From a candidate division WOR-3 bacterium (GTDB lineage: Bacteria; Hydrothermota; Tepidihabitantia; Tepidihabitantales; Tepidihabitantaceae): 64,000 nucleotides of DNA. The translations under genes were made by a program, and so were the position numbers. Position 1 is the stretch's first letter. Each line of letters opens with the position of its first letter. The stretch covers positions 112,603-176,602 of the forward strand of contig CBFGJX010000003.1 of NCBI GenBank assembly GCA_965649225.1, read 5' to 3'. Shown in pieces: positions 46,652-61,736 of this stretch. The notes under the pieces are model-generated. The model saw only the letters and a program-made list of their open reading frames with translations. It was not told the DNA's origin and did not search any database.

Positions 46652-46659
46652 GTCCCGTC

Positions 46660-47919
46660 ATGGACAAATTTCTCATCCGGGGTGGCCGGCGGCTTGAAGG
46701 CCGGGTTTCGGTCGCCGTGGCCAAGAACGCGGTTCTGCCGATACTGGCCGCCTGTCTGCTCACTGATGAACCCTGCACGATCCGGGGTGTACCCCAGCTC
46801 GAAGACGTCGCGACGATGCTGCGGCTCTTGACATCGATGGGAGCGCAGGTGACCCGTCGCGGCGGCACGGTCACGATCACCGCCGCCGGCAGAATTGACC
46901 GCACCGCTCCCTACGACATCGTCCGCAAAATGCGCGCCTCCTATTACGTGCTCGGCCCGCTGTTGGCGCGCTTCGGCGACTGCCGGGTATCGCTGCCCGG
47001 CGGCTGCGCAATCGGTCCGCGGCCGGTTGATCTCCATCTCAAAGGCATCGGTGCGCTCGGCGCCCGGATTGCGGTCGAACACGGCTATATCCACGCCACC
47101 GGCCGGCAACTGCAGGGCAGCCCGATGGTACTGGAAGGAGCCAACGGCCCCTCGGTCGGCGCAACCTGCAATGTGATAATGGCCGCCGCGCTCGCCCGGG
47201 GCGAAACCGTCATCGAAGGCGCGGCCGCCGAACCGGAAGTCGCCGACCTCGCCGACTTCATCAACTGCCTCGGTGGCCGGGTCGAAGGCGGCGGCAGTTC
47301 CACTGTCCGCATCCGCGGCGTCCGCCGGCTGCACGGCGCCGAATACCGGCCGATACCCGACCGCATCGAAGCCGGCACCTTTGCCGCGGCGGCGGCCATC
47401 ACCCGCGGCCGGGTCGAAATCACCAACTGCAACCCGGCACATCTGGTTGCGGTCATCGCCAAACTCCGCGAAGCCGGCATCACGGTGGAAACCGACCGCA
47501 ACACCCTGATTGTCTCGGCCCAGGACCGCCCCGAACCGGTGCGGATCAGCACCATGCCTTACCCCGGCTTTCCCACCGACCTGCAGGCCCAGTTCACCGC
47601 CCTGCTCTGTCTCGGCAAAGGCACCAGCGTCGTCACCGAAAACATCTTCGAATCACGGTTTCTCCACGCGCTGGAGCTCAACCGGATGGGTGCCCGCATC
47701 GACATCACCGGCAACATGGCGGTGATTCTGGGCATCGAGTCGCTCAGCTCGGCACAGGTGATGGCTTCTGATTTGCGGGCCTCGGCCGCACTGGTACTGG
47801 CCGGCTTGGCGGCACGGGGCACGACCGAAGTACTGCGCATCTACCACCTCGACCGCGGCTACGAAAAACTGGAAGCCAAGCTCAACGCACTCGGTGCGCG
47901 GATTGAGCGGGTGCGCTGA
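46660..47919 (+). CDS. murA: UDP-N-acetylglucosamine 1-carboxyvinyltransferase
   Basis: MDKFLIRGGRRLEGRVSVAVAKNAVLPIL...; active-site Cys in LPGGCAIGPRPVDLH; 419 aa; the track ORF is extended 5' through non-homologous sequence. Confidence 0.9.
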   Translation: MDKFLIRGGRRLEGRVSVAVAKNAVLPILAACLLTDEPCTIRGVPQLEDVATMLRLLTSMGAQVTRRGGTVTITAAGRIDRTAPYDIVRKMRASYYVLGPLLARFGDCRVSLPGGCAIGPRPVDLHLKGIGALGARIAVEHGYIHATGRQLQGSPMVLEGANGPSVGATCNVIMAAALARGETVIEGAAAEPEVADLADFINCLGGRVEGGGSSTVRIRGVRRLHGAEYRPIPDRIEAGTFAAAAAITRGRVEITNCNPAHLVAVIAKLREAGITVETDRNTLIVSAQDRPEPVRISTMPYPGFPTDLQAQFTALLCLGKGTSVVTENIFESRFLHALELNRMGARIDITGNMAVILGIESLSSAQVMASDLRASAALVLAGLAARGTTEVLRIYHLDRGYEKLEAKLNALGARIERVR

Positions 47920-47920
47920 A

Positions 47921-48961
47921 ATGACCCAGCGCCGGGCAGTGACCGTCGGCCCGCTTGTCATCGGCGGCGGTGCGCCGGTGGTTGTCCAGTCAATGACCAA
48001 CACCCGCACCGACGATGTCGCCGCTACCCTGCGGCAGATCCGCCGGCTCGAACGTGCCGGCTGTGAACTGGTGCGCCTGGCCGTTCCCGACCACGCCGCT
48101 GCCGCTGCCCTGCCGGCCATCCGCGCCCGCACCCGCCTGCCGCTGTGTGCCGACATCCATTTCGATTACCGTCTCGCCCTTGCCGCCATCGCTGCCGGCG
48201 TTGACAAAATCCGCATCAACCCGGGCAACATTGGCAGCACCGTCCGGGTAAGGGAAGTCATCCGTGCCGCGGCTGACCGGCACACCGCCATCCGGGTTGG
48301 CGTCAACTCCGGTTCCCTGCCCAAAGCGGTCCTGCGTTGTCACGGCCGGCCGACCCCGGCCGCGCTGATCGAAAGTCTCAACCGCTCGCTCGAACCCTTT
48401 CAGGTGCTGAACTTTCACGACATCGTCCTTTCGGCCAAAACCACCGCCGTGTCCGACACCATCGCCGTCTATCGCGAACTGGCCCGCGTCCTGCCCTATC
48501 CGCTCCATCTGGGGCTGACCGAAGCCGGCCTCCCCCTCGAAGGGGCAATCCGCTCGACCGCGGCCCTGGCCCCGCTGCTGCTTGATGGCATCGGCGACAC
48601 CATCCGCATCTCACTCACCGGTGACCCGGTGCTGGAAGTTCACGCCGCCTGGCAGCTGCTGGCCGCGCTCGACCTGCGCCGGCGCGGCCCGCTGGTCTAC
48701 GCCTGCCCCACCTGCGGTCGCACCGGCATTGACGTTGCCGGACTCACCCGGCAGGTACAGCGCGCCCTCGCCGGCTCGAACCGGCTGGTGAAGATTGCGG
48801 TCATGGGCTGCGTCGTCAACGGGCCGGGCGAAGCCCGCGAAGCCGACTACGGCATTGCCGGCGGCCGCGGCCGCGGCGTCATCTTCGCCCGCGGGCAGGT
48901 GGTCAAGACCTGTCCGGAAAAGATGCTTGTCCCGGAATTGTTGCGTATAATGTCCCAATGA
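47921..48961 (+). CDS. ispG: 4-hydroxy-3-methylbut-2-enyl diphosphate synthase (GcpE)
   Basis: MTQRRAVTVGPLVIGGGAPVVVQSMTNTRTDDV...; C-terminal CPTCGRTG...GCVVNGPGE cluster cysteines; starts 1 nt after the murA stop. Confidence 0.9.
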   Translation: MTQRRAVTVGPLVIGGGAPVVVQSMTNTRTDDVAATLRQIRRLERAGCELVRLAVPDHAAAAALPAIRARTRLPLCADIHFDYRLALAAIAAGVDKIRINPGNIGSTVRVREVIRAAADRHTAIRVGVNSGSLPKAVLRCHGRPTPAALIESLNRSLEPFQVLNFHDIVLSAKTTAVSDTIAVYRELARVLPYPLHLGLTEAGLPLEGAIRSTAALAPLLLDGIGDTIRISLTGDPVLEVHAAWQLLAALDLRRRGPLVYACPTCGRTGIDVAGLTRQVQRALAGSNRLVKIAVMGCVVNGPGEAREADYGIAGGRGRGVIFARGQVVKTCPEKMLVPELLRIMSQ

Positions 48962-50436
48962 GCCGCACGGTCTGCTGCCGGATGCTGTTCGTCCTGCTCG
49001 TCTCGCTCGCCGGTGCTGCCACCGCTGCCGCCTGCACCATCGGTGCGTTCAGTGGCCGGGCAACCGCCGACGGCCGGCCGGTACTGTGGAAAAACCGCGA
49101 CGTCGACAATCAGAATCAGGAACTGCGTTTCTGGCTCGGCGGCCGCTACCGCTTCGTGTCCAACGCCTACGCCGACGACACTCTCAACGCCTGGGGCGGC
49201 ATCAACGAAGTCGGGTTTGGCATCATGAATTCCAACGCCTACAACCTCGGCCCCAAGCTCAAACGCAAGGGTCCCGATGACGGCAACATCATGGCGCTGG
49301 CTCTGGCCACCTGTGCGACGCTGGCCGATTTCGAGAAACTGCTCGACTCGTTCAACTTCATCGGTCGAACCACCCCGGCCAACTTCGGTGTCCTCGACTC
49401 CACCGGTGCCGCCGCCATTTACGAAGCGTCCAACACCTGGTATGTCCGCTGTGACGCCGCCGCCGACACTCTCGGCTATACCCTGCGCGCCAATTATTCG
49501 TTCTCCGGCGACTCGATCCGGCTGCGCGGTCACAACCGTTTCCTGCGTGCCTTCGCCGTCTGCTCCACCCGTCACCGCTCCCGGCCGATCGACGTCCGCT
49601 TCATCATGGGCCGCCTCGCCCGTGACCTGGGACAACCCGGCTTCGACCCCTACCCGCTGCCCTTCGGCGGTACTTTCGGCAGTCTGCCGGTCGGCTATCT
49701 GCCCACCGACACAACTATCTGCCGGCTGAAAACCCGCTCGGTGGAAGTAATCGTCGGCGCCCGCCCGGGTGCCGGACCCGGCACGGCGATGATGTGGTAC
49801 TATCCCGGCTCACCGCTTACCAGTCTGCCGATTCCGGCCTGGCCGGCGGCGGAAAGCGTCCCGTCGGTACTCGACGGTCCAGACCGCGCCGTGCTCTGCG
49901 ACGAGGCGATCCGGCTGCGCGACTACCTGCTGTCCGAACCCGGATTTCCGACCGCCGTCAACACCCGCACGCTGGCGGTGGTGCTGGAGTTTTTCGCGCC
50001 GGTTGAATCGGTTATCTACCAGCTGGTTGACAGCTGCGAAGCGGTCTGGGGCGACAACGGCCCGTCACCGCTGCAGGCCTGGCAGACAACCAGCCGCTGC
50101 TGTTCCCTCGCGCTGGCGGCCTACCGCGGGGTCTGGGACCGCCTGCTCTGGGAAAGACTGGCTCGTTTCAGCATTCCGGTGGTCGATTCGACCCTGCCGA
50201 TTCTGCACGGCCCGAGCCGGCTGCGGTTGCCGACAGACTTTCCGGCCGGTCAGGTCGCCGTGCTTGACGCCGCGGGTCGCCACGTCGCCGAACTGCTCGT
50301 CCCTTACGGTCATTCGGTTGTCCAGTGGCCGCCGGCACCGCTCGGCACCGGCACCTACTATCTGGTCGCCGGTGATGGCCGCAACATCAGACGGCTGCGG
50401 CTGATATATCTGCTGCCGCCAGCGCCGCGCCGGTAG
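48958..50436 (+). CDS. secreted peptidase-C69-like Ntn-hydrolase with T9SS CTD
   Basis: Signal then AAACTIGAFSGRATADGRPVLWKNRDVD (compare C69 [23 protein letters not shown]: Cys nucleophile, ATADG, N..D); CTD ...GTGTYYLVAGDGRNIRRLRLIYLL; ATGA overlap with ispG. Confidence 0.65.
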   Translation: MSRTVCCRMLFVLLVSLAGAATAAACTIGAFSGRATADGRPVLWKNRDVDNQNQELRFWLGGRYRFVSNAYADDTLNAWGGINEVGFGIMNSNAYNLGPKLKRKGPDDGNIMALALATCATLADFEKLLDSFNFIGRTTPANFGVLDSTGAAAIYEASNTWYVRCDAAADTLGYTLRANYSFSGDSIRLRGHNRFLRAFAVCSTRHRSRPIDVRFIMGRLARDLGQPGFDPYPLPFGGTFGSLPVGYLPTDTTICRLKTRSVEVIVGARPGAGPGTAMMWYYPGSPLTSLPIPAWPAAESVPSVLDGPDRAVLCDEAIRLRDYLLSEPGFPTAVNTRTLAVVLEFFAPVESVIYQLVDSCEAVWGDNGPSPLQAWQTTSRCCSLALAAYRGVWDRLLWERLARFSIPVVDSTLPILHGPSRLRLPTDFPAGQVAVLDAAGRHVAELLVPYGHSVVQWPPAPLGTGTYYLVAGDGRNIRRLRLIYLLPPAPRR

Positions 50437-51175
50437 CCGCTGCCAGCAGTGGCTTGGCCGCCACTGCCACCGGCAGACCGATGGCTCTTGCCAGTGCTGC
50501 CCGCATGCCCTCGTCCTGCGCCACGCCGCCGGTGAAGACGACCGGGCCGACCAGCCGCAGTCGGGCCGCCATGTTGGCCACCCGCCGCGCCAGCGCCTCG
50601 TGCAGACCGGCAATGATATCTGCCACCGGCGTGTCTGCGGCCAGCAGCGACAGAATCTCCGATTCCGCCATCACCACGCAGAGGCTGGACACCGGCACCG
50701 GCCGCCGGGCCGAAAGCCCCAGCTGACCAAAGCTCTCCAGCGGCACCGAGAGCGTCCGGGCAAGAACCGAAAGAAACTGACCGGTACCGGCCGCGCAACG
50801 GTCATTCATTGCAAAATCGCTGACCCGCCCTGACTCGTCCAGAGTCAGCACCTTGGAGTCCTGTCCGCCAATATCAACAATTGTTCGACAATCGGGATGC
50901 CAGAACCTGATGCCAAGGGCGGCGGCTTTGATCTCGGTTATCTGCTCGGCCGCTCCTTCGACCACGCCCCGCGCGTAGCCGGTCGCGACCAGCACTCCCC
51001 CCTGACCGTGCAGCTCCGGATGTTCGCGCCGGCAGTCTTCCAGCAGCATCCGGACCGTATCCCGCGGCCGCGGCCCGGTCGATTCAACCCGCTCGCACAA
51101 CACTCTCCGACTGGCCGGCTCAATCACCACCAGCTTGGTATTCACCGAGCCAACATCAATCCCCGCCGCCGTCAA
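50387..51175 (-). CDS. HgdC/BcrAD-type ATPase activator ([4Fe-4S] activase of 2-hydroxyacyl-CoA dehydratase-like enzymes)
   Basis: GIDVGSVNTKLVV; NDRCAAGTGQFL and SSLCVVMAESE (cluster-bridging Cys motifs as in HgdC); 3' end overlaps the convergent C69-like gene by 50 nt. Confidence 0.8.
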   Translation of the reverse strand: MTAAGIDVGSVNTKLVVIEPASRRVLCERVESTGPRPRDTVRMLLEDCRREHPELHGQGGVLVATGYARGVVEGAAEQITEIKAAALGIRFWHPDCRTIVDIGGQDSKVLTLDESGRVSDFAMNDRCAAGTGQFLSVLARTLSVPLESFGQLGLSARRPVPVSSLCVVMAESEILSLLAADTPVADIIAGLHEALARRVANMAARLRLVGPVVFTGGVAQDEGMRAALARAIGLPVAVAAKPLLAAATGAALAAADISAAAV

Positions 51176-52269
51176 CTGCTTTGCCTCCTGTCGGTCTGCC
51201 GGGCTCGACCGGTGCCAAAACCGGGATTGGTCCCGGCCTGCCGCGCCGCCCGCACGAATGCCCGGACATTCTCCTCCGGCGTGTCAATCGGCACCTCGCA
51301 GCCGGTCGCGGCAACAAAACCGCGCGGACAACCCTGCCCGGCCATCACCATCTGGGCCGTGCTGCGTTCGATTTCACCCGGTGCGGCCAGCAGCAGTGTC
51401 GAGGTGTCGAAATTACCCACAATCCGGCACTGCCCGCCGGCAGCGGCAATCGCCCGTTCCAGCTCGAGCCGGTCGATGCTCAAAAGGTCTGCCCCGCTCT
51501 GGGGCATCAGTTCGACGATTGAATCGGTATCACCACAGATGTGCAGCACAATGTCCAGGTCAAAGCGGTGCAGATAGCTGATTACCGTTGTTTCTGCCGG
51601 CAGTGCGAACTGCCGGTAATGGTCGGCCGAAATCACGCTGCCTGATGCCAGCGGGTCAACCAGTATCGGCAGCCCACCGGCACCGATTATCGCCCGGCAG
51701 AAACGGATTGTCGAACTGCCTGCCCAGTCCAGCAGCCGCATAACCAGTTCCGGCCACTCAACCAGCCCGGTGAGAAAAGCTTCCGGGTCAACCAGCTGCT
51801 GAGCGGTAGTGAACGGTGCCGGCACATACGCCAGAATCGGGACCGTATCGCCACGCGCCTCCCAGGCATCGGCGATTGCATCCAGATAAACTCTGAGTCG
51901 GCCGTCGCGCACCGGGTCAACAGTCAGTTCACCCTGCCGGTTCAGTGCCGCGGCCGCTTCGTCCAGTTTCTGCCACCGCGGCCGCGCCAGCATCGGCAGG
52001 TCATCCTCAGGGTAGCTGTACTCGGAACCCAGCGCTTCTGCCAGCAGACCGACTTCAGAGAAGAACGAGATGAAATCGGTTCCGTAGTGCTCCTGTGCCA
52101 CCAGTTGACTGTGCGCCATTGCCCGGCCGTCGGTGTAGTAGTCGCGCAGGCTGATTCCGGCCACCCGCGCGGCATGAGCAGTAATCAACGGGAAAACCGG
52201 CACCCGGTCCTGTGGCTCATCGATCACCAGCAGTCCGAAGCGTTCTCTGGGAGTAAGCCGGTCTTTCAT
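51172..52269 (-). CDS. UroD/MtaA-CmuA-family methylcobamide methyltransferase-like protein (copy 2)
   Basis: Zn motif DIVLHICGDTDS and downstream VAATGCEVPIDTPEENV. Confidence 0.75.
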   Translation of the reverse strand: MKDRLTPRERFGLLVIDEPQDRVPVFPLITAHAARVAGISLRDYYTDGRAMAHSQLVAQEHYGTDFISFFSEVGLLAEALGSEYSYPEDDLPMLARPRWQKLDEAAAALNRQGELTVDPVRDGRLRVYLDAIADAWEARGDTVPILAYVPAPFTTAQQLVDPEAFLTGLVEWPELVMRLLDWAGSSTIRFCRAIIGAGGLPILVDPLASGSVISADHYRQFALPAETTVISYLHRFDLDIVLHICGDTDSIVELMPQSGADLLSIDRLELERAIAAAGGQCRIVGNFDTSTLLLAAPGEIERSTAQMVMAGQGCPRGFVAATGCEVPIDTPEENVRAFVRAARQAGTNPGFGTGRARQTDRRQSS

Positions 52270-52360
52270 CTATGCCCGGCCCTTGGCCAACCACCCGTTC
52301 TGGCCCGAACGTCAATCAACATGCCCACTGGGAGCAGAATCACCTGCATCTGACCGCCCT

Positions 52361-53851
52361 TTAACTCTGCCGGCGTCCGCGGACGACTTCAAGAAAAGCC
52401 GCTATCCGGGTCTCAATCTGCCGGTTGAGTTCCCGGGCCGGTGCCAGCACATCAAACTCCAGCACCGGCAAATCGAGGGCGGCCCGCACCTCCTCGGCAA
52501 TCGGCCGCGACTCCATCGCACAGTGAGAACCGCCCAGTACGCCCGAAACGATGACCCCTTCGGCATCGTACTGCCGGGCACGAACAATCAAAGCCTGCGC
52601 GCGCTGACGGCTGGAACCAATCAGCGAGGCTGCCATGAACGACTCGGCAATATCGCTCAGCCGTGCATCGCAGGCTTCAGCCTCACCCTTGTCACCGCTG
52701 CCGATAATCTCCAGTGCCTGATTGATCAGATACTCGGTTGCAACGACCCGGCAGCCGCGGTCCTCAACCGCGCAGAGCAGCAGCGGGTCGGCCGGTGGTG
52801 AACACCAGGCAATCCGCAGCGCGTCAGCAGCCAGCGGCAGGTCGCCACGCTCGACCCGTTGCTGCGCCGTGTCCAGCAGCTGCTCGAGGATATCGGCCCA
52901 TTCGACCATGTCCGAGTAGCCGTGCAGACAACCAAACTCGACCACCATCATCTCCAGCGCCGGCAGCGCCCCCCTGCCATAGGCCAGTGCGGCAAGCTCC
53001 CGTGTCAACCGGCGCACCCGATTGGCCTGGGCAATGCTCCGCTCCAAGTCCGCCGGGGTCAACCGGTGACCGGTGATTGACTCCAGCCGCGCCACAATCC
53101 GCCGGTACTCGTTCACCAGCAGGTCACGCGCTGCCGGGTCATAGACCGTCCGGCTGTCGCCCGTCGCCGCCGGCCGCCCGAGACACCCGCGGCACGCCTC
53201 CGGGTCGCTGCGCATCGGCACCTCGACCCAGAGCGTTTCCGGCACCAGGGTTGCCACGCGCGACTCAACCCCGGAAAAATCATCGCAGGTCGCGCCGGTC
53301 GAGGCAATCACCAGGTCCGGGTCGGGAAAGTAGCTGTGCTTGAAGAACGCGCCCAGTGCCGCACGCGAAAAGCAGGTCGCCTCGCCGATGCCCAGCTCGG
53401 CCGCGGCGTCAAACAGCACGTTTGACTCCATCACGAACGGCGTCCACCAGATACAATCAGGATAGAACGCGACGCAGCCGGGAAACGCATTGACAACTAC
53501 CGGCACGGCGCCAAGGTCACCCATCACCGCAACAACCTTCAGCCCGAGCTGGCGGGCCCGAAACAGCCGTTCCGTTTCGTTCTGAACAAAACCCCACAGC
53601 CGCAGTGCGGCCAGTGAATTGTCAAACCGCAGCCGCTTCAGATGCCGGCAGCCGTAGATGGCAAAAGTCTGGGGTGGAAAAAGATAGGCCGACCACTGTG
53701 CCGGCACTGGCTGATGCTGCCGGTAGTAATGGTAACGCCCGATCGTCTCGTCCGGCACCAGTTCGAACAGGTTCAACCATTCGTCAAACCCGACCCGGGC
53801 CGCTTTCGGGTCAACCCAACCCCTGCCTGCCGGCCCGCTGTCACCCTTCAC
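52361..53851 (-). CDS. 2-hydroxyacyl-CoA dehydratase / benzoyl-CoA-reductase BcrBC / DCCP family (HGD-D) subunit, HgdA-like
   Basis: 496 aa; conserved Cys pattern (GCVAFYPDCIWW, ATCFSRA, CAVEDRGCRVVATEY); 4-nt overlap with the upstream HgdB-like gene. Confidence 0.7.
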   Translation of the reverse strand: MKGDSGPAGRGWVDPKAARVGFDEWLNLFELVPDETIGRYHYYRQHQPVPAQWSAYLFPPQTFAIYGCRHLKRLRFDNSLAALRLWGFVQNETERLFRARQLGLKVVAVMGDLGAVPVVVNAFPGCVAFYPDCIWWTPFVMESNVLFDAAAELGIGEATCFSRAALGAFFKHSYFPDPDLVIASTGATCDDFSGVESRVATLVPETLWVEVPMRSDPEACRGCLGRPAATGDSRTVYDPAARDLLVNEYRRIVARLESITGHRLTPADLERSIAQANRVRRLTRELAALAYGRGALPALEMMVVEFGCLHGYSDMVEWADILEQLLDTAQQRVERGDLPLAADALRIAWCSPPADPLLLCAVEDRGCRVVATEYLINQALEIIGSGDKGEAEACDARLSDIAESFMAASLIGSSRQRAQALIVRARQYDAEGVIVSGVLGGSHCAMESRPIAEEVRAALDLPVLEFDVLAPARELNRQIETRIAAFLEVVRGRRQS

Positions 53852-54963
53852 AGGTTCTCCAGAAATGCCTCGAGCCGGGTGCGCACCTGCTCCCGGTTTT
53901 CGACCGAGTAGGTACTGTCGATATGCAACACCGGCAAACCCAGTTCACTGCCCAGCCGGGTGCGTTCCAGCGCCCAGGGGTCACAGTAAAGCAGGGTTTT
54001 GTAAACCAGCCCTTGCACCGCGAAATCCCGCACCCGCGTCCGGGCGTAGTCAAAGAAAGCGTCGTTCGGCCTTCGATGGGCACACGGCACCCGGCCGAAG
54101 TAGTACCGCGCCAGCCCGGCATAACCGTTGTCCGCCACCAGCGGACCGACGTCTTCGGCAAACCACCGCGTCCCCGTGCAGAGAAAATCGGTAACGATGT
54201 CCGCCTTGGCCTCGACCAGTCGCACGAACCAGCGGTCATCATCGGCAACAATACTGCCCCCCAGTGCCAGCCGCGGGCGCTGCACCCGAATCATCTCCCG
54301 CTGTGGCTGACTGGCTGCGGCTGTTGCGAGTTCACTGCCTGCCTCCGGGCCGATGAGGTTCGCCACCGCCACCAGGTCCAGCACCGCACTGCCGGCGATG
54401 CCGGGTGGCACCTCCCGCCGCCTTTCGTCAGCCGAACGCAGCGCCTGGCGCAGCCGGTCATAACGGGCGGCGGCCGCATTCAACTGCGCTGCCGTCACTG
54501 CAATTCCCGTCAGCGCTCCCAGTTCACTGGCCAGCCAGCGCAGCTGTCGTTCGAACTCCGCAATCCGGTGCGGCAACGGCTCGGCCGTGCGCGGCAGATA
54601 AAGGCTGAAGGCCGGAATGCCAAAGTTGCGCTGAATCAGTTCCGGCAACCGCCGCATCATATCGCAAGTACTGACACCAATCACCGCATCACACAGCCGG
54701 TACAGCCGGTCGGACTCGAAGTTGCCCAGACAGCTCTTGCAGAACGAACAGGCGTCGCTGCGAACGTACTTCTCGCCTGACTGCTCGGCCGTGAACCCGC
54801 CCCGCTGCAGCCGTACCGGAATCGCACCAGCTGCGGCAATCAGCTCAATCGGGGTGTACAGACAGAAATAGCCTACGACTCTGCTGCCCGCAGCCCGCAG
54901 CTCGGCCAGTTCCTCAATCAACCCTGACCGCAGCAGCTCCGGCAGCCCCGTTCCTGTCAACAC
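53848..54963 (-). CDS. HGD-D family subunit, HgdB-like
   Basis: N-terminal VVGYFCLYTPIELIAAAGAIPVRL characteristic of the family; CDAVIGVSTCDMMRR. Confidence 0.7.
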   Translation of the reverse strand: MLTGTGLPELLRSGLIEELAELRAAGSRVVGYFCLYTPIELIAAAGAIPVRLQRGGFTAEQSGEKYVRSDACSFCKSCLGNFESDRLYRLCDAVIGVSTCDMMRRLPELIQRNFGIPAFSLYLPRTAEPLPHRIAEFERQLRWLASELGALTGIAVTAAQLNAAAARYDRLRQALRSADERRREVPPGIAGSAVLDLVAVANLIGPEAGSELATAAASQPQREMIRVQRPRLALGGSIVADDDRWFVRLVEAKADIVTDFLCTGTRWFAEDVGPLVADNGYAGLARYYFGRVPCAHRRPNDAFFDYARTRVRDFAVQGLVYKTLLYCDPWALERTRLGSELGLPVLHIDSTYSVENREQVRTRLEAFLENL

Positions 54964-56339
54964 CAGTCGGCCAGCTCCATTCGGGAAACAAACTGCCGCT
55001 CGAAATCAGGATGCTCGCTCAATCGAACCTCCCGGCAACGCAAACCCAGTTCTGCCGCCTCTTCCCGGGCCGCCCGATTGGTCAGTCTCACTGCCCCGGC
55101 CAGCGCCAGATTGCCGTGCTGACGCACCTGCCGGGCCGCGATTGCCGGCACCAGTCCAATCGCCGCCGCTGCCGCAATATCCAGCGCCGCCCCGAATCGG
55201 CCGGTCAAATGCACCCGCCCGATATCTTTCGGCTTCGCCGGCCACTCATCCAGCAGCACCGCGATGCCGGCGGCAATCGCTGCCTTGGCCAGCTGTATCT
55301 CACGGACATCGGCCTGAGAAAGATAAACGCCATCGGCCAGGTTCATCTTGCCGTCCCGGACTCGGCCGCCCGGCTCAATCAATCCAGCCGCCAGCCCGGC
55401 CGCAACTGCCGACAGCACGCCGGAGCCACAGATACCTGTCGGCCGCCCATTGCCAACCGTCGTCAACTGCCAGTCCTTGCCGACACGACGCACCGCCGTG
55501 ATTGCCCCGCGCCGGGCAAACGAACCGCACTCCAGCGTTGCGCCCTCAAACGCCGGCCCGGCCGCAGTCGAACAGACAAGAATCCGCTCGCGGTTGCCCA
55601 GCGCGATTTCGCCATTCGTACCGGCATCGACGAGCAGACTCAGCTCCGCGCGTCGGTGCATCCCGCTGGCGACAATCGCCGCACTGCAATCACTGCCGAC
55701 AAAACTGCCCAGCAGCGGTGGTGACCACAGTCTCAGTCGCGGGCTGAAGGCAAAACGTCCGGCCAGCGGTACTTTCAGCGGCAGCCGTGACCGGTACGGA
55801 TAACTCCCCAGTCCGGCCGGCGTCCGGCCGAAAACAAAATGCATCATCGCCGTGTTGCCCACCGCGACCGCGGCTCGTGTTGGCGGTATGCCGGCCGTGA
55901 ACACGAATTGCCGTACCACTGCCCCAAGGTCAACCCGTCGGACCAGCCGGGCTGCACCAATCCGGCTCATGACATCTGCCCCCAGCACCGCCTGCGGATT
56001 GAGCCTGGCTCCCTGCCGCACAATCCGTCCGGTATGGCGGTCAACTGCCGCCAGCGATACCGTCGTTGTCCCGAAATCAACCGCCAGCAGTCTTTCTCGC
56101 AGAACGACACGCCGTGTTGGCGGCAGTCTGCCGGCATCGGCCACCCGCACCCACACCGGTCCCGTCGGCACATAGCGACAGGCGAGAACCTCCTCGCAGC
56201 CCTCGGCAGTTACAATCTGAACCCGACACCGACCGCAGCGCCCGACACCGCCGCAGTCCGCCGCCACCATTGCCCCGCTGACCGCCAGCAGCTGCAACAG
56301 ATTCAGCCCGGGACGAGGGCGAATCAGCAATTCGCTCAA
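54957..56339 (-). CDS. RACo-type reductive activator of corrinoid proteins ([2Fe-2S] ferredoxin domain plus ASKHA ATPase)
   Basis: ADCGGVGRCGRCRV...C cysteines; ASKHA phosphate motifs VDFGTTTVSLAAV and LLVDAGTNGEIALG; 460 aa. Confidence 0.7.
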   Translation of the reverse strand: MSELLIRPRPGLNLLQLLAVSGAMVAADCGGVGRCGRCRVQIVTAEGCEEVLACRYVPTGPVWVRVADAGRLPPTRRVVLRERLLAVDFGTTTVSLAAVDRHTGRIVRQGARLNPQAVLGADVMSRIGAARLVRRVDLGAVVRQFVFTAGIPPTRAAVAVGNTAMMHFVFGRTPAGLGSYPYRSRLPLKVPLAGRFAFSPRLRLWSPPLLGSFVGSDCSAAIVASGMHRRAELSLLVDAGTNGEIALGNRERILVCSTAAGPAFEGATLECGSFARRGAITAVRRVGKDWQLTTVGNGRPTGICGSGVLSAVAAGLAAGLIEPGGRVRDGKMNLADGVYLSQADVREIQLAKAAIAAGIAVLLDEWPAKPKDIGRVHLTGRFGAALDIAAAAAIGLVPAIAARQVRQHGNLALAGAVRLTNRAAREEAAELGLRCREVRLSEHPDFERQFVSRMELADWC

Positions 56340-57340
56340 ACCAGACCCCTCCCGGCGTTCACCAGCGCCGCGACATTCTCGGGCGGACTGGCGGCCGGCA
56401 CATCACAGCTGGTCGAAAGTATCAGGCGCGGGCCGGCTGCAGCCAGACACGCGTGCGCCGCCGCCGCAACTTCCTCCGGCCGGCCTTCCAGCATCAACTG
56501 CGTCGAAACATTGCCCATCAGCGCAACACTGGTACCGGTCCGCATACTGCGCAGGTCGCCCTCGTCAACACTCAGCACCGCTGCACCGCTGCAGACCATG
56601 TCAGGCAGAATCTGGCGCGTGTCGCCGCAGATGTGCAAAACTGCCGGTGCGCCAAGCTCCCGAATCCAATCCACCAGCTGCTTCAAACCCGGCAGCGCAA
56701 ACTCGCGAAACATCGCCGCACTGATCATCGAACCCGACGCCACCGGGTCGCCGATAAACGGAATTGCCCCGGCCCGGACAACTGCCTCGGCATAACGCAA
56801 CTGATTATCCAGCGCCGCAGCAAGGTAATTGCGCGCCCGTGCCGGGTCGGCCAGCAGGTCTTCGAAAAAACTCCCGATGCCGCGCAGGAATGCCGCCAGC
56901 GAAAACGGCCCTTTGATGCCGACCAGTACCGGCACTTCACCCTCAAGCAGCTTCACCAGCCGCCGGGTCGCCTCCAGCACCACCGGCATCCGACCATCGC
57001 TTTCGGGGTCGGCCGGTTCGAGACGGGATACCCGCGCCGGCCCGATGACAAAAGGATTGTCTTCCTCAGGAATGACGACCTGCGCGCCCATTGCCTCGGC
57101 CTCGACCGTCGTGTCGGCAAACACCAGCACGAGGTCATAACCGTAGCGCCGGTACGCCGAATACAGCACCCGCGCCAGCGTATCGCCCTGCGTCACGGCT
57201 TCGGAAACTGAATAGCCCTCCAGCCGCGCCGCGTGGTCTGCGACCACCATCGGAAACACGACCGGCTGCTCGGGAGCGCCGCCGCGCACGAGCTCGCGCA
57301 GTCGCTCAACCCGCTGTCCCGGCCCGCGCCTCTCGGTCAT
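56336..57340 (-). CDS. UroD/MtaA-CmuA-family methylcobamide methyltransferase-like protein (copy 1)
   Basis: Zn motif AVLHICGDTRQ and LSTSCDVPAASPPENV. Confidence 0.75.
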   Translation of the reverse strand: MTERRGPGQRVERLRELVRGGAPEQPVVFPMVVADHAARLEGYSVSEAVTQGDTLARVLYSAYRRYGYDLVLVFADTTVEAEAMGAQVVIPEEDNPFVIGPARVSRLEPADPESDGRMPVVLEATRRLVKLLEGEVPVLVGIKGPFSLAAFLRGIGSFFEDLLADPARARNYLAAALDNQLRYAEAVVRAGAIPFIGDPVASGSMISAAMFREFALPGLKQLVDWIRELGAPAVLHICGDTRQILPDMVCSGAAVLSVDEGDLRSMRTGTSVALMGNVSTQLMLEGRPEEVAAAAHACLAAAGPRLILSTSCDVPAASPPENVAALVNAGRGLV

Positions 57341-57348
57341 TCTCTGGG

Positions 57349-58041
57349 TTATTGCCGCTGGGTCCGCTGACCAGTCAACCTTTCCGTTTCCAGCACCGCG
57401 CCGTGCGCGTCGGCGGCCCAGCCGTCGGCGCCAATCCGCCGGGCAAACTCCGCCGTCACCGGTGCACCGCCGACTATCACCTTCACACCCGGGCGCAGCC
57501 CGCGCCGGTCCAGCGCCTCGATGACCTTGCCCATCCGCGGCATCGTCGTGGTCATCAGCGACGAGATACCCAGCACCGCCGGCCCGTCCTCGGCTGCGCG
57601 CAAAAAATCCTCGACCGCTACGTTCCGACCGAGGTCAACCACCGTAAACCCCGCCGCCTGAATCATTACCTTGACGATGTTTTTACCGATGTCGTGGATA
57701 TCGCCCTGCACCACACCGAGAATGACGCGACCCCGGCCAGCCGCATCGGCCGTACCCAACGCGTCCTTGAGAATGTCGAACCCGGCGTACATCGCTTTCG
57801 AGGCCAGCAGCACTTCGGGCACGAAACACTCTTTCGCCGCAAACTTCTCGCCCATTCGGCGCATTCCCGCTGCCAGCCCTTCGGTGATTGCCGTCTGCGC
57901 GCTCAACCCTTCGGCCAGCACTCTGCGCGCCAGCTCGGCCACGAGCTCCGGCTTCAGCGCCACGACCGCATCGGCCAACTCTCGATACAGCTTGTCCACA
58001 GCAGCTATCCTATCCGCGCCAGAACCACGCTGCAACATCAA
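57349..58041 (-). CDS. corrinoid (B12-binding) protein, methyltransferase-cognate type
   Basis: GVVQGDIHDIGKNIV (DxHxxG), ISSLMTTTM (SxL), VIVGGAP (GG); helical cap domain N-terminal. Confidence 0.8.
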   Translation of the reverse strand: MMLQRGSGADRIAAVDKLYRELADAVVALKPELVAELARRVLAEGLSAQTAITEGLAAGMRRMGEKFAAKECFVPEVLLASKAMYAGFDILKDALGTADAAGRGRVILGVVQGDIHDIGKNIVKVMIQAAGFTVVDLGRNVAVEDFLRAAEDGPAVLGISSLMTTTMPRMGKVIEALDRRGLRPGVKVIVGGAPVTAEFARRIGADGWAADAHGAVLETERLTGQRTQRQ

Positions 58042-58060: not shown

Positions 58061-58714
58061 TTATCTGAGTATGACCTTCTGCGTACCAGCGCTCTTGGGC
58101 CGAATCAGCAGGTACACACCCGGGGCTACTCCGCGCAGACTGTTGACACCCGGAGTCAGCCATCTCAGCCGACGTCCGACACCATCAACCAGACACGCCC
58201 CGTCTGACCAGTGTATCGTGACCACGCTGTGGACAACTGTCGACCGCGATACCCAGACACCGACTGCCGGCTGCACTGTTTCAAACACGCCCGAGCCAGT
58301 CCGGGTGACGACCGTGATTGAATCCGTCAGCATTGTGTCGCCGAGCGAGGTCACTTTCAGGTTAACGCGCTGAACCCCCTGCCGGCTTCCGGCATAGACC
58401 GTGACATCAATAGTTGAATCCGACTCGCCGGGGGCGAGTGTGTCAAAAAGCGGCGACCCGGGCTCAACGCAACGGCCATGCGCACACACCACCACCACCC
58501 AGCCAGGGACGCTTTCAAGCACGCGACTGTCCAGACGGAAGATATCGGGCACGCTGGCGGTGTTCGTGAGCGTGAAATGAAACTCGGCTATCCCACCCGG
58601 TTCGATCTGCCGCACCGTGTCATCGCGACAGACAAAATTGAAGCCGAAGCCGGCCCAGGCAATTCCCCCACCGAGCAGAATCAGTACAAGCACAATCCTG
58701 AACCTGTCCTTCAT
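58061..58714 (-). CDS. small secreted protein with T9SS CTD
   Basis: Start ATG 58714 (MKDRFRIVLVLILLGGGIAWA) in ATGA overlap with the upstream stop; CTD ...APGVYLLIRPKSAGTQKVILR. Confidence 0.55.
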   Translation of the reverse strand: MKDRFRIVLVLILLGGGIAWAGFGFNFVCRDDTVRQIEPGGIAEFHFTLTNTASVPDIFRLDSRVLESVPGWVVVVCAHGRCVEPGSPLFDTLAPGESDSTIDVTVYAGSRQGVQRVNLKVTSLGDTMLTDSITVVTRTGSGVFETVQPAVGVWVSRSTVVHSVVTIHWSDGACLVDGVGRRLRWLTPGVNSLRGVAPGVYLLIRPKSAGTQKVILR

Positions 58715-59496
58715 CGGCAACCTCGGATGTTCTGTTGCAGTCTTTTCAAACCACACGCCTGCAAGACGCGGTTCGTGACCGGATGCTGGACGAACGCCAC
58801 TGCGCCGAGTCGCCTCGGGTTCCAGCCTGGCGCAAGGCCGAAGCTCTCACTGAACTCCAGCGTATCCCGCCGCGCCAGCAGAAAGTCCCGTCCCCGGCAA
58901 CCGGGCAGCATCTGTCGCATCACGCGGTTAAATACGCTGTCCGTCGCGCCTGGCTGGGTCGCGCGCACGCTGTCCTCGACCAGCACCACATACAACCGCA
59001 GGCTTTCGGCCGGAGTTGAGTCAACACCGCTGACCTGCACAGTTAGCGTACCACCGGAAGAATCAAGCCGGGCGGCCATGTCGAGCTGAACCCCGGGCGG
59101 CACACCCTTGGCCGCAATAATGAAGTTCCGAAAAGTCGGGTAGTTGTATTCTGGCCCGGGCGTGCGCACCGGTGTCCCGCCATCGAAAACCGTTGCCGGT
59201 TCGCCGCCGGTCTCGTAGTAAAGCCCCCGCCGCTCTTCAACATACTCCGGCGACAGCGTGTCGCCCGCCACACGCCGATGATAGGCAATCACCACGACGC
59301 TGTCGTGCAACTCCATTGCCAGACTGTCCAGGGCCCGCGCCGCGTACGGGCAGTAAGAACATCGCTGCCAGGTGAACATTTCCGCCAGCACGACGCGGTT
59401 GGTCGGCACGAGCGGCACATCTGGAGCAACTGAGCAGGCAGTTGCGGCGAGGCCGGCAGAAGCCAGCCCCGCCGCAAAAGCACGCAACAGACCCAT
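58711..59496 (-). CDS. thioredoxin-fold lipoprotein with WxxCSYCP motif (Omp28-like N-domain), start set at ATG 59496
   Basis: MGLLRAFAAGLASAGLAATACS lipobox; VVLAEMFTWQRCSYCPYAARALDSL; the track's TTG at 59715 adds a compositionally odd N-terminal extension. Confidence 0.5.
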   Translation of the reverse strand: MGLLRAFAAGLASAGLAATACSVAPDVPLVPTNRVVLAEMFTWQRCSYCPYAARALDSLAMELHDSVVVIAYHRRVAGDTLSPEYVEERRGLYYETGGEPATVFDGGTPVRTPGPEYNYPTFRNFIIAAKGVPPGVQLDMAARLDSSGGTLTVQVSGVDSTPAESLRLYVVLVEDSVRATQPGATDSVFNRVMRQMLPGCRGRDFLLARRDTLEFSESFGLAPGWNPRRLGAVAFVQHPVTNRVLQACGLKRLQQNIRGCR

Positions 59497-59497
59497 G

Positions 59498-61276
59498 CTA
59501 CCGACCGACCACCAGCTTGACCGACCGGGTCCCGGCCGCCGAACTGAGCCGGCAGAAGTAGGCGCCGGCGCCGACTCTCCGGCCGCTGCCGTCGTCGAGC
59601 TGCCACACCGCTTGGCCCGACCCGGCAAGACCACAGGCCAGCACCTGTACCTGCCGCCCGCCGGCGTCGAACACCACAAGGTCGCCGCGCGCGTTTGGCG
59701 GTAACGAATACTCAAAGGCGACCGGCGTATTCACGATGGTTCGCGTTGCGGCCGCGCGCAGCCCGACTGCCGCTGGCGGCTCAGCGAGGGCCGAAGCATA
59801 CGGGCTGACAACGATGTCGTCCACCGACCAGCCATCGTCGGTAACGCTGCCGTCGGACAGGAAACGAAACCGCACCTGCAGCGTTGCTCCGGCAAACTCG
59901 GTCAGGCTGAAGCTCTGCCTTGCCCAGTTGCGCGCCGCCCCGGTCCACGTTCCAAGCGTGTGCCAGAACGGCCCGCCCGGGCTGACGTCCACCATGCAGT
60001 AGTCCCAGCCCTGCTCGACCGCGTACCATTGCCAGAAATCGAGCGTGGCACCGTCGCCGACCAGAAAACGTGGACTGGTCAGGCGCATGTCGGTCTGGTT
60101 GGGGTACTGACCGCTGCTGGTCGTTGTCCATGACCTTGTCGGCGAATGCGAACGGACCGTGCTGAGCGCCCACTGGCAGTTGATACCGGTGCGGGACCAG
60201 CCACCGACACCGCTCTCGCAGTCGTCGCTGAACCCGGTGCCGGCTGTCACCAGCATCGGGATCGTGAAACGGCCGCCGCTGCTGACATCCAGCGTCAGCG
60301 TCACGACCCGGTCCGACGGGCAGTTCGCAGCGATGGTCAAAGCGAACGGGGTGTTGGGCCCAAGGGTTCCGGCAACACCGATGTCCGGATAAGCCGCACC
60401 GGGTGTTGTGACAGTGACATAGGGATCGGTCGTGGACAGCGAGCCGGTCACGCCGGTCGCTGTCGCCGAACCGAGGTTGCGCAGCATCGGTCGCAACTGC
60501 ACACTGCCACCCGGCCGCGCCGGCGACCCGACAAAACCGTAGTACTCAAGCGTCGGCCGCTGCACCACGTCGCACCAGGCTCCCTGATGGATCGCCCGCG
60601 AGGAGTTGTTCTGGACGAACACTATGAACCGGCAGTTCCGTGCCACCCAGGACGGGTTGATTGTGAAACTGCGGGTCCGCACTACTGAATCACCCACCGG
60701 CACCGAAATCGCCTCGCCGGACGCCGACGGCAGCATCGTGCGCTCGACATCATGCAGGCTGTCCATTCCCTGCCAGTAGTATGGGATGTGGCTCTCGGTG
60801 AGCGCAGTGTGCAGTTGCCCGTTGATCGGGACAGAGCCGGTGTTGCGCACGACAATGGTCAACACACCGCTTCGGGCAACTGAGTCATAGGTTGTCGAGA
60901 GGTCAATATCCAGCGGACTCGGATTGGCGGCGTGGCTGCGCCAGTAGTCCCAGTAAATCGGAAACATCGTGCCGCTGTGAATACCCCCCACCACGGTCGA
61001 ATCGCCATCGAGTATAACGGTCGGGTAACCGGACACCCCGTAATAACTCATGCGCGCGGCAGCGGTCGCGGTGTAGAACGGGTCGCTGCTCGATGAATGG
61101 TAGGCGATGGCCACGACCGAATCGAACGCCCGGAACTGCAGTTCCTCGATGCCCCGCGCCGCACCCGGGCAATAAGTGCACCACGTCGCGGTGAAATCCT
61201 CTATCACGGTCACAAGCTGGCTCGCCGGCAACGCGACCGGCACGAGCATCAGCACGATCAGTACGGCTCTTCTCAT
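59498..61276 (-). CDS. secreted protein with thioredoxin-like WCTYCP N-domain, Ig-like middle, MAM/InhA-like beta-sandwich and T9SS CTD
   Basis: RBS AAAGGAGAaggacgATG; VTVIEDFTATWCTYCPGAARGIEEL; ...GWSVDDIVVSPY; CTD ...GAYFCRLSSAAGTRSVKLVVGR. Confidence 0.7.
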   Translation of the reverse strand: MRRAVLIVLMLVPVALPASQLVTVIEDFTATWCTYCPGAARGIEELQFRAFDSVVAIAYHSSSSDPFYTATAAARMSYYGVSGYPTVILDGDSTVVGGIHSGTMFPIYWDYWRSHAANPSPLDIDLSTTYDSVARSGVLTIVVRNTGSVPINGQLHTALTESHIPYYWQGMDSLHDVERTMLPSASGEAISVPVGDSVVRTRSFTINPSWVARNCRFIVFVQNNSSRAIHQGAWCDVVQRPTLEYYGFVGSPARPGGSVQLRPMLRNLGSATATGVTGSLSTTDPYVTVTTPGAAYPDIGVAGTLGPNTPFALTIAANCPSDRVVTLTLDVSSGGRFTIPMLVTAGTGFSDDCESGVGGWSRTGINCQWALSTVRSHSPTRSWTTTSSGQYPNQTDMRLTSPRFLVGDGATLDFWQWYAVEQGWDYCMVDVSPGGPFWHTLGTWTGAARNWARQSFSLTEFAGATLQVRFRFLSDGSVTDDGWSVDDIVVSPYASALAEPPAAVGLRAAATRTIVNTPVAFEYSLPPNARGDLVVFDAGGRQVQVLACGLAGSGQAVWQLDDGSGRRVGAGAYFCRLSSAAGTRSVKLVVGR

Positions 61277-61723: not shown

Positions 61724-61736
61724 GGTCTCGTTCTAC

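Follow-up and report, generated by a model that had tools for sequence, protein, structure and literature searches.

The DNA analysed here is a 64-kb stretch (the window) from the genome of a candidate division WOR-3 bacterium, and the subject of this report is a set of seven consecutive open reading frames (ORFs) on its minus strand, read from position 58041 down to 50387, in which the predicted components of a corrinoid-dependent methyl-transfer system are interleaved with those of an ATP-dependent iron-sulfur reductase. The names used for the genes and their products are, from 5′ to 3′, CoP, MlpA, RACE, HgdS, HgdL, MlpB and Act (table 1). A seven-gene set with exactly these limits had been proposed in an original prediction made from the sequence letters, which also assigned each product to a protein family. 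Both proposals were borne out by Pfam and NCBIfam profile scans evaluated against curated cut-offs, all seven ORFs scoring well above those of the predicted Pfam families, and the pairing that had been singled out as unusual also holds, namely that of two ATP-dependent low-potential systems (RACE and the archerase) with one corrinoid methyl-transfer set.

Table 1. Features of the window discussed in the text (aa, amino acids; SAM, S-adenosylmethionine; EPSP, 5-enolpyruvylshikimate-3-phosphate).
Feature	Position	Strand	Remarks
CoP, corrinoid (cobalamin-binding) methyl carrier	57349..58041	-	230 aa; Pfam B12-binding_2 + B12-binding, 2e-27
MlpA, MtaA-like zinc methyltransferase	56336..57340	-	334 aa; Pfam URO-D, 236 bits, 8e-70
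RACE/RACo-type ATP-dependent corrinoid reductive activase	54957..56339	-	460 aa; Raco_middle + RACo_C_ter, 1.5e-60
HgdS, small HGD-D subunit	53848..54963	-	371 aa; Pfam HGD-D, 227 bits, 7e-67
HgdL, large HGD-D subunit	52361..53851	-	496 aa; Pfam HGD-D, 125 bits, 6e-36
MlpB, second MtaA-like zinc methyltransferase	51172..52269	-	365 aa; Pfam URO-D, 206 bits, 1e-60
Act, HgdC-type ATP-dependent activase (archerase ATPase)	50387..51175	-	262 aa; BcrAD_BadFG, 165 bits, 3e-48
Three secreted proteins between accessory genes and CoP	58061..61276	-	Pfam Omp28, DUF1223, InhA-like_MAM, FlgD_ig
Ferredoxin:thioredoxin-reductase-B-like C-terminal remnant	61733..61927	-	64 codons; CPC, CRC, CFC (CPC...CxC...CxC) motifs
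ArsM/UbiE-like SAM methyltransferase	62057..62860	-	Pfam Methyltransf_11/25/31, Ubie_methyltran; conserved accessory gene, 4 kb upstream
Small EamA/DMT-like membrane protein	63085..63465	-	tblastn match to cluster c23; weak NCBIfam similarity to DMT transporters
ORF directly 5′ of the EamA-like gene	63514..63768	-	85 aa; no NCBIfam family match
Convergent gene	48958..50436	+	492 aa
ispG	47894..48961		
Longest ORF with EPSP synthase domain	45712..47919	+	735 aa; domain only at residues 323-724
ORF overlapping the preceding one	44641..46473	-	610 aa; no family match

The junctions derived from the ORF coordinates are, from 5′ to 3′ along the operon, a gap of 8 nucleotides (nt), overlaps of 4, 7 and 4 nt, a gap of 91 nt and an overlap of 4 nt, so that four of the six overlap, as had been described. 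The 91-nt spacer between HgdL and MlpB is regarded as real because a stop codon lies immediately 5′ of the MlpB ATG. No frameshifts or internal stops were found in the seven ORFs, the HGD-D and activase genes being intact, as the original prediction had required. It had also spoken of one unit of transcription and translation: the translational coupling stands, and that the seven genes are co-transcribed is what we infer from the overlaps and from the conserved gene order. A scan for consensus promoters and terminators gave the same counts as shuffled sequence and was uninformative, and Rfam and tRNA scans of the window yielded no cobalamin or SAM riboswitch, SECIS element or selenocysteine tRNA (tRNA-Sec).

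Components of the operon

CoP contains both B12 domains above cut-off and carries the complete base-off/His-on motif DxHxxG...SxL...GG, with D114-x-H116-x-x-G119 (the element already noticed in the original prediction), S160-x-L and G191-G192 invariant in 59 out of 59 orthologues. Its best NCBIfam matches are corrinoid proteins cognate to methyltransferases, all of them below the equivalog cut-offs. The closest solved structure to MlpA is that of the methylcobalamin:coenzyme M methyltransferase MtaA (PDB 4AY7, E = 7e-28), which is also the closest PDB entry to MlpB (E = 7e-25), and the E-values of true uroporphyrinogen decarboxylases are weaker than those of MtaA by at least 14 orders of magnitude for both proteins. 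The zinc ligands are invariant, namely H236, C238 and C312 in MlpA (55/55 orthologues) and H243, C245 and C324 in MlpB (63-64 of 64), in agreement with the earlier claim that both UroD-like proteins retain an H-x-C...C signature and are not uroporphyrinogen decarboxylases. Kountz and Balskus (2023 preprint, PMC10418091), who defined mlp gene clusters (MGCs) as combinations of MtaA-like proteins with a corrinoid protein and Ram/RACE, associate the His-Cys-Cys site with S/Se-methyltransferases, whereas in O-demethylases one or both Cys are replaced by carboxylates or non-coordinating residues. Since the site is invariant, MlpA and MlpB are read as methyltransferases acting on sulfur or selenium, not on oxygen. 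In a neighbour-joining tree the two proteins form separate clades (bootstrap 100 and 99 for MlpA and MlpB, respectively), each spanning the phyla in which the cluster occurs, and they are therefore taken to be old paralogues with distinct roles.

RACE combines an ASKHA domain with a short N-terminal 2Fe-2S ferredoxin-like domain, in which C29, C35, C38 and C54 are conserved, and is placed in a different subfamily because it falls below cut-off on the AcsV and RamA equivalog models. Taken together, CoP, the two Mlps and RACE have the sequence features of a corrinoid-dependent methyltransferase system of the MtaABC/MtsAB/SdmABC type.

In the reductase half of the operon, the closest PDB entry to HgdS is the double-cubane cluster protein DCCP (6ENO, E = 5e-32), followed by BzdN. 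C34, C72, C100, C262, C294 and C327 of HgdS align with residues 36, 73, 100, 263, 293 and 327 of BzdN, the ligands of its [8Fe-9S] cluster; C72, C100 and C327 are invariant, and the other three are found in approximately 90% of the orthologues and in the window. HgdS is thus predicted to be the electron-storage subunit harbouring an [8Fe-9S] double cubane. Against the DCCP model NF040772 (cut-off, 350 bits) it obtains 170 bits, which sets it apart as a distinct subfamily, and HgdL obtains 59 bits, as compared with 451-460 bits for true DCCPs encoded nearby in related loci.

HgdL has only three universally invariant cysteines, C160, C189 and C444 (75/75). A profile-profile alignment of HgdL with HgdS (hhalign, 99.6% probability) brings C160 and C189 exactly onto C72 and C100 of HgdS and C444 to within three positions of C327, in the same loop, with D112, Y374 and G412 at the positions of three ligands of the distal cubane. 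This is the pattern known from BzdO and HadB, where the loss of one cubane leaves behind a [4Fe-4S] cluster held by three cysteines, with an open iron and a pocket for the substrate, and HgdL is predicted to be a catalytic subunit of this kind. In Foldseek comparisons its AlphaFold (AF2) model (pLDDT 88, pTM 0.91) is about equally similar to DCCP, HadB/C, BzdN/O and MbdN/O (template modelling scores, 0.70-0.79; identity, 14-18%). The protein is further distinguished by a conserved N-terminal extension of approximately 100 residues and by the family-specific motifs RLKFDNSLAALRLWGF and FYPDCxWWTPF. C133, within the latter (FYPDC), is conserved in WOR-3, whereas Lentisphaerae and Planctomycetota have Ala or Phe in its place. 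About residues 216-236 of the window HgdL form an insertion that contributes a further CxxC pair (C220 and C223); approximately 85% of the orthologues lack this insertion.

Natural fusion proteins of 656-867 aa from Candidatus Sabulitectum and metagenomes (P0131, P0143 and P0148), with an HgdL-like N-terminal half and an HgdS-like C-terminal half, among them a single 867-aa protein in Sabulitectum, indicate that HgdL and HgdS act together, and the pair is referred to here as HgdSL. The genes of the window run in the opposite order, with HgdS ahead of HgdL. Act, an ATPase of the ASKHA type, scores 209 bits on TIGR00241 (cut-off, 125), and the two cluster-bridging cysteines that had been predicted for it (C127 and C166) are invariant in 68 of 68 sequences.

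Assignment of HgdSL to any of the characterized families was considered and rejected. A true DCCP is contradicted by the scores on NF040772 and by the cysteines, of which HgdS has six of the seven of the motif and HgdL three. As a class I benzoyl-coenzyme A (CoA) reductase (BCR-I), HgdSL would be expected to reach the cut-offs of the BzdN and BcrC models, where it scores 81 versus 454 and 54 versus 421 bits, respectively; the operon has a single HgdC-type activase, and genes of a benzoyl-CoA pathway, such as those for a CoA ligase, a dienoyl-CoA hydratase or a two-subunit ATPase module, are missing from the recurrent neighbours of the approximately 75 loci. As a 2-hydroxyacyl-CoA dehydratase (HAD) it scores 71 versus 700 bits on the HadC model, the likeness in fold is at family level only, and no CoA transferase was found among the neighbours. 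By sequence only, HgdSL is therefore a deep, uncharacterized branch of the BCR-I/HAD/DCCP family with a cofactor architecture resembling that of BzdNO. A CoA ester is unlikely to be its substrate, since neither CoA ligases and CoA transferases nor genes of ring pathways are among the recurrent neighbours.

Distribution of the cluster and its genomic neighbourhood

Where a source is named, the 120 best homologues of HgdL come from candidate division WOR-3, with 54-98% identity, and the contigs that encode orthologues at 55-59% identity have the identical seven-gene order and share the convergent genes downstream of it, which are ispG, aroA and one resembling Ntn-hydrolases. When 1.84 billion representative sequences were searched exhaustively, just 191 relatives were obtained at E <= 0.001 (36 at E <= 1e-30), so that the HgdL family is to be considered small. 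Its more distant members bear the names of Planctomycetota, Victivallales/Lentisphaerota and Candidatus Sabulitectum, and no sequence identical to the window HgdL is on record according to an exact-sequence look-up.

The survey for the same gene order that had been suggested by the original prediction was carried out with one genome per GTDB species and a five-sequence alignment as the query, which led to 75 loci onto which the seven window proteins were mapped. The order CoP-MlpA-(RACE)-HgdS-HgdL-MlpB-Act recurs in about 65 genomes, from WOR-3/Candidatus Stahlbacteria, KSB1, LCP-89, Calditrichaeota (Calditrichota), Candidatus Tariuqbacter, Planctomycetota and further metagenome-assembled genomes, and its recurrence in so many independent genomes means that the arrangement is not due to chance. 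The cluster is close to universal in WOR-3. CoP, HgdS, HgdL, MlpB and Act form an invariant core, present wherever the contig extends far enough; MlpA is absent from about 7 clusters and RACE from about 15. Where they are complete on that side, clusters with CoP always include MlpB, which without exception adjoins HgdL. Only HgdL-MlpB-Act is present in one locus (L006), and in the complete WOR-3 chromosome CP070680.1 (L078) the match to HgdL ends after about 230 residues, with MlpB and Act missing. In both, the cluster may have decayed or been split. A plasmid collection searched with MlpB gave distant UroD-family genes only, apart from the type 1 MGC of Acetoanaerobium noterae.

All flanking ORFs of the 75 loci were clustered, and the recurrent clusters were annotated with NCBIfam. 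The most frequent neighbour is the ArsM/UbiE-like SAM methyltransferase (46 of about 75 loci), whose best matches, the DVU_1556 family and arsenite methyltransferases, all lie below cut-off. It is followed by the selenium genes selD (25 loci; 355 bits versus a cut-off of 125), selA (17 loci; 554 versus 268) and selB (10 loci; 354 versus 242), all three assignments exceeding the equivalog cut-offs. A ferredoxin:thioredoxin-reductase-B-like (FTR-B-like) protein and the small EamA-like membrane protein also recur, as does, in some loci, a NitT/TauT-type ATP-binding cassette (ABC) transporter. The common layout may be written as selD-(ftr)-[DCCP-Act]-SAM-MT-(eamA)-CoP-MlpA-(RACE)-HgdS-HgdL-MlpB-Act-selA-selB, where SAM-MT is the SAM methyltransferase. 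The sel genes occur in at least five different arrangements across the WOR-3 groups, Lentisphaerae, Planctomycetia and others: selD lies immediately 5′ of CoP in one WOR-3 group; in another, selD-ftr-SAM-MT is upstream and selA-selB downstream; in Lentisphaerae a divergent selB-selA pair lies beside a selD-AhpD fusion, the SAM methyltransferase and HgdS; and other arrangements are seen in L017, L037 and L071. Given this diversity, a single chance event passed on by descent does not suffice to explain the association with selenium genes. The recurrent neighbours of the approximately 75 loci include neither a pterin-type methyltransferase nor a CoA ligase, a CoA transferase or any gene of a ring pathway, and met, mtn, cys, ars, mer and SaoL/MerB-like genes were likewise not found among them.

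The additional HGD-D genes of some WOR-3 loci and of Lentisphaerae encode bona fide DCCPs (460 and 451 bits, respectively, on NF040772). In four WOR-3 loci (L034, L043, L078 and L080) such a DCCP gene and its own activase gene lie just upstream of those for the SAM methyltransferase and CoP, and there are therefore two archerase systems in one selenium neighbourhood there. The Lentisphaerae/Victivallales loci (L011-L014 and L007) contain selB and selA on the minus strand, selD, the SAM methyltransferase gene and HgdS, and, as a unit of its own, HgdL-DCCP-Act; corrinoid protein and Mlps are both missing. Inspection of the 660 nt that part HgdS from HgdL revealed no hidden corrinoid or selenoprotein gene. 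In these loci SelD is extended at its C-terminus by a fused AhpD-like domain that is similar to the tail of ArsM-AhpD selenoproteins. The NitT/TauT-type transporter is encoded in seven loci (L005, L016, L017, L057, L058, L061 and L062). In L005 it lies directly 3′ of Act, its permease and binding protein have as best, sub-threshold matches SaoP and SaoX from the SAO locus (for 'selenocysteine-assisted organometallic'), and a conserved 289-aa protein without family match is encoded just 3′ of the transporter genes.

Several of these accessory genes are also present upstream of the operon in the window. The SAM methyltransferase is 67% identical to the copy of L018, where it directly precedes CoP. 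The gene of the EamA-like protein (c23) is directly 5′ of CoP in 12 loci and, in other phyla, stands between those of the SAM methyltransferase and CoP; in the window it is itself preceded by an 85-aa ORF. The FTR-B-like remnant, which in tblastn has 73% identity, along a stretch of 41 aa, with the FeThRed_B gene of L001 and has as best NCBIfam match, below cut-off, the 'FtrB family double-selenoprotein', is apparently truncated by comparison with the intact 106-aa copies that many related loci have between selD and the SAM methyltransferase, and is either a pseudogene or the product of an assembly frameshift. The three secreted proteins that separate the accessory genes from CoP are an Omp28-related thioredoxin-like protein (WCxYCPG and CxxC motifs and a C-terminus of the type 9 secretion system kind; best NCBIfam match 'Omp28-related selenoprotein', which at 72 bits stays below cut-off), a lipoprotein resembling Omp28/DUF1223 and a third protein of 231 aa without family match (c24). 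The same trio (c19 and c24) is found 5′ of selD-CoP in the WOR-3 group A loci; it is probably outside the enzyme system but may be linked to extracellular redox chemistry of selenium or sulfur.

On the other side of the operon, the 492-aa convergent gene shares 50 nt with the 3′ end of that for the activase. Its product starts with a signal peptide followed by a Cys and has no Pfam match itself, while its orthologues match PF03417 (AAT, Ntn-hydrolase), and its synteny with ispG and aroA is kept across WOR-3. In the 735-aa ORF, which overlaps a minus-strand ORF, the position of the EPSP synthase domain suggests that the true start is probably much later than that of the longest ORF. The rest of the window is ordinary chromosome, with genes for pyruvate:ferredoxin oxidoreductase, fpg, parAB, murJ, a signal peptidase and large secreted Kelch/LVIVD/subtilase proteins. 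AT skew, which is close to 0 elsewhere in the window, rises to 0.20-0.28 at positions 16000-22000 and 30000-34000, coinciding with long minus-strand genes (secreted LVIVD/unknown proteins and murJ).

Candidate roles of the cluster

The reading that we favour, with confidence evenly balanced against doubt, is that the operon is the core of a conserved selenium-associated cluster of anaerobes, from WOR-3 and several phyla related to FCB/PVC, that mobilizes selenium, or less likely sulfur, from methylated or other organic forms. In its favour stand the MtaA-like, His-Cys-Cys type of the two Mlps, the sel genes that recur around the cluster in its relatives, the BzdNO-like pattern of the reductase and the precedents of SdmABC, ClMlp2 and the double-cubane proteins described below. 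By analogy with other enzymes that carry the His-Cys-Cys zinc site, such as MtaA, MtsA and SdmBC, MlpB would transfer the methyl group of a methyl-Se (or methyl-S) compound to Co(I)-CoP, and MlpA would pass it from methyl-Co(III) to a thiol acceptor; in the clusters without MlpA, both half-reactions would be carried out by MlpB, as MtsA does. RACE, with ATP and its 2Fe-2S centre, would return accidentally oxidized Co(II) to Co(I). In parallel, ATP hydrolysis by Act would drive low-potential electrons into the [8Fe-9S] cluster of HgdS and from there to the three-cysteine [4Fe-4S] cluster of HgdL, where a small, non-CoA substrate would bind in the space that the second cubane has vacated and be reduced there. 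The likeliest reaction would be the reductive cleavage of a C-Se/C-S or a Se-Se/Se-X bond, which may either yield the methylselenol to be demethylated by MlpB or complete the release of selenide, the latter being destined for SelD. The fixed adjacency of HgdL and MlpB suggests that they handle the same small molecule in succession. The role of HgdSL would then parallel that proposed for the methylthio-alkane reductase MarHDK beside other Mlp clusters.

A number of observations weigh against this assignment. selD, selA and selB are absent from the 64-kb window, so that the link with selenium rests on the relatives of the operon, and within WOR-3 the synteny with selenium genes is partly inherited and the loci are accordingly not independent. 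No selenocysteine (Sec) codons were found in the core genes of 81 loci, the only stops in the alignments being those at protein ends. Sequence cannot tell selenium from sulfur or from other metalloids as the atom that is handled. The Lentisphaerae loci, with HgdS, HgdL, a DCCP and Act but neither CoP nor Mlp, indicate that the reductase is not strictly dependent on the corrinoid system. In the neighbour-joining tree, in which the type 1 MGCs were represented by the single cluster of A. noterae (L082) and the deep nodes are unsupported, MlpA and MlpB do not group with the three Mlps of that cluster. The conserved SAM methyltransferase, whose orthologue is found also in the Lentisphaerae loci that lack CoP and Mlp, is without explanation and could indicate methylation rather than demethylation; the idea that it compensates for a missing RACE was rejected, as the synteny table shows no anti-correlation between the two. 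Finally, the role assigned to HgdSL is a guess, given that the simple demethylation of a methylselenide needs no strong reductant.

Among the alternatives, we regard as rather unlikely a selenium-free metabolism of methyl-sulfur compounds or methionine salvage, in which the Mlps would move the methyl group of methanethiol or of a methylthio compound through CoP to homocysteine or another thiol, and HgdSL with Act would take the part of MarHDK by cleaving a C-S bond with release of methanethiol. The His-Cys-Cys site suits sulfur as well as selenium, a proposal of this type was made by Kountz and Balskus for about 10% of the type 1 clusters, and the near-universal presence in WOR-3, as for a housekeeping pathway, the sulfonate/taurine-type ABC transporter of some loci and the lack of sel genes in the window fit it. 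However, selD, selA and selB recur in several independent arrangements, met, mtn and cys genes are missing from the recurrent neighbours, and the double-cubane relatives of HgdSL track SelD. A role with another methylated metalloid or organometallic compound (arsenic, tellurium or mercury-like), as in the SAO idea, with the SAM methyltransferase and the corrinoid system adding or removing methyl groups and HgdSL acting as the reductase, appears improbable. It draws on the resemblance of the SAM methyltransferase to arsenite methyltransferases and ArsM-type selenoproteins, on the best matches of nearby transporter genes to SaoX/SaoP and on the link of double-cubane proteins with the SAO locus reported by Haft and Gwadz (bioRxiv 10.1101/2022.07.06.499078); moreover, no enzyme is known to carry out the anaerobic demethylation of methylarsenicals. 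All of these family matches are, however, far below curated cut-offs, no ars, mer or SaoL/MerB-like gene recurs nearby, and the sel genes are the strongest signal of the neighbourhood.

There is a similarly slim chance that HgdSL and Act act without a separate small substrate, as a second and stronger reductive activator of CoP or as a reductase that discharges methyl-Co(III). This would account for the approximately 15 clusters that keep HgdS, HgdL and Act but not RACE, although in these genomes a RACE gene could be located elsewhere; both RACE and HgdSL-Act are ATP-driven single-electron pumps, HgdL always adjoins MlpB, and no second methyltransferase that could unload the methyl group is obvious in the minimal cluster. 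On the other hand, most clusters carry both systems, the Lentisphaerae have HgdL, HgdS and Act without a corrinoid protein, and the predicted open-site cluster and pocket of HgdL, as in BzdO and HadB, suit a small substrate. The original prediction had suggested methoxylated aromatic or hydroxy-acid substrates, that is, an O-demethylation of aromatics or ethers coupled to ATP-driven ring reduction or 2-hydroxyacyl-CoA dehydration, which now appears highly improbable. A corrinoid protein with two UroD-like methyltransferases and RACE is indeed also the layout of some O-demethylases, and HgdS has weak matches to BzdN and HadC, but these reach only 81 of 454 and 71 of 700 bits, respectively; the zinc ligands are His-Cys-Cys and not those of the O-demethylase sites with Cys replaced by Asp/Glu, and the nearest structure of both Mlps is MtaA. 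Furthermore, the operon has one activase gene of the homodimer type where a BCR would have an ATPase module of two subunits, pterin-binding methyltransferases, CoA ligases or transferases and downstream genes of ring degradation are missing from the approximately 75 loci, and the neighbours are selenium genes. An aromatic O-demethylase of the Odm/Vdm/Mto type was likewise rejected, given the zinc ligands and the context, in that neither the operon nor its recurrent neighbours include a pterin-binding methyltransferase.

A more far-reaching proposal is that HgdSL and Act represent a new class of BCR-like, ATP-driven archerase reductase, in which a double cubane would feed the open-site [4Fe-4S] cluster, acting on a small organoselenium or methyl-cobalt substrate and that, together with the corrinoid shuttle, they make up a new pathway of selenium assimilation across WOR-3, KSB1, Calditrichota, Planctomycetota and Lentisphaerota. 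We put it forward tentatively, as more apt to fail than to hold. If true, a DCCP-like reductase would for the first time have a physiological role that lies outside aromatic metabolism. The question bears on the substrates of DCCP-type reductases, on why DCCPs track SelD, and on the acquisition of selenide from methylated or organic selenium by anaerobes, which is known only genetically, through SdmABC of Methanococcus. With a BzdNO-like reductase hard-wired to a corrinoid methyl shuttle and, in its relatives, to selD, selA and selB, the operon offers a compact and strongly conserved seven-gene test system, which could reveal the substrate of a whole enzyme subfamily and whether ATP-driven reduction serves the salvage of selenium (or sulfur). 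As these uncultured phyla are common in sediments and groundwater, it could also add a step to the selenium cycle there.

Comparison with known systems

The original prediction regarded the combination of the two gene sets as undescribed, and this is correct in part. Genomics, together with a limited amount of biochemistry, has already connected Mlp/corrinoid/RACE clusters with the metabolism of methyl-selenium and with double-cubane reductases. In the work of Kountz and Balskus (PMC10418091), some mlp clusters are drawn with DCCP, DCCPR and selenium genes (selABCD; Fig. 5 therein), ClMlp2 was found to methylate selenide (Km, 80 uM), and 87% of the organisms with mlp clusters have the Sec machinery; recycling of methyl-selenide was proposed, with methionine salvage for the minority that lies beside MarHDK-like genes. 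Similarly, 955 of 970 double-cubane proteins were found in genomes that encode SelD, often beside the SAO locus (Haft and Gwadz), and HGD-D and activase genes are among the neighbours of selD/YedE/YedF in Slackia (Lin et al.). What stands of the claim is that no member of the HgdSL subfamily or of the fixed operon has been characterized. New are the HgdSL subfamily of BzdNO-like heterodimers, the fixed way in which it is interleaved with the methyltransferases, and its breadth across uncultured phyla with selD, selA and selB alongside. The phyla found here are missing from the organism lists of Kountz and Balskus. Their type 1 MGCs are mostly from Firmicutes, lack conserved synteny and have a homodimer-type DCCP, whereas here the order is fixed across phyla and the reductase would be a heterodimer of two divergent HGD-D paralogues. 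A literature search on WOR-3 corrinoid or selenocysteine biology, or on an HGD-D dehydratase with a corrinoid protein and MtaA, returned nothing relevant.

With respect to individual systems, SdmABC is similar to the operon in combining a corrinoid protein with two UroD-family methyltransferases for obtaining selenium from methylated selenides; it is genetically required for the use of dimethylselenide in M. voltae and strongly induced by selenium starvation in M. maripaludis. It differs in being archaeal, in that no HGD-D reductase, HgdC activase or RACE is reported in the locus, and in its acceptor, which is presumed to be coenzyme M. MarHDK, beside 'non-selenium' Mlp clusters, is also an ATP-driven complex-iron-sulfur reductase accompanying a Mlp/corrinoid system, with a proposed reductive cleavage of C-S bonds that would supply the methyltransferases with a methyl-chalcogen compound; however, it belongs to the nitrogenase superfamily, HgdSL and Act to the unrelated BCR-I/HAD/DCCP (archerase) family, so that any likeness would be functional only.

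The DCCP/DCCP-R system of Carboxydothermus hydrogenoformans (PDB 6ENO and 7YZM), the closest solved relative of HgdS, is an ATP-dependent low-potential reductase of small, non-CoA molecules, the physiological substrate of which is not known. DCCP forms homodimers, carries a motif of seven cysteines and uses the double cubane for its active site, while in HgdSL the ligands of the double cubane are retained by HgdS alone (six of seven), HgdL is the predicted single-cubane catalytic partner, and true DCCPs are encoded nearby by extra genes. The cofactor pattern of HgdSL is that of BzdNO (PDB 8S02; PMC11971306), where two homologous HGD-D subunits, one with a six-Cys [8Fe-9S] and the other with a three-Cys, open-site [4Fe-4S] cluster, are fed by an ATPase of the ASKHA type. 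HgdSL is set apart from BzdNO by the low identity (14-18%) and the equivalog scores far below cut-off, by the single HgdC-type activase and the lack of genes for CoA esters in the vicinity, and by the N-terminal extension of HgdL with its family-specific motifs.

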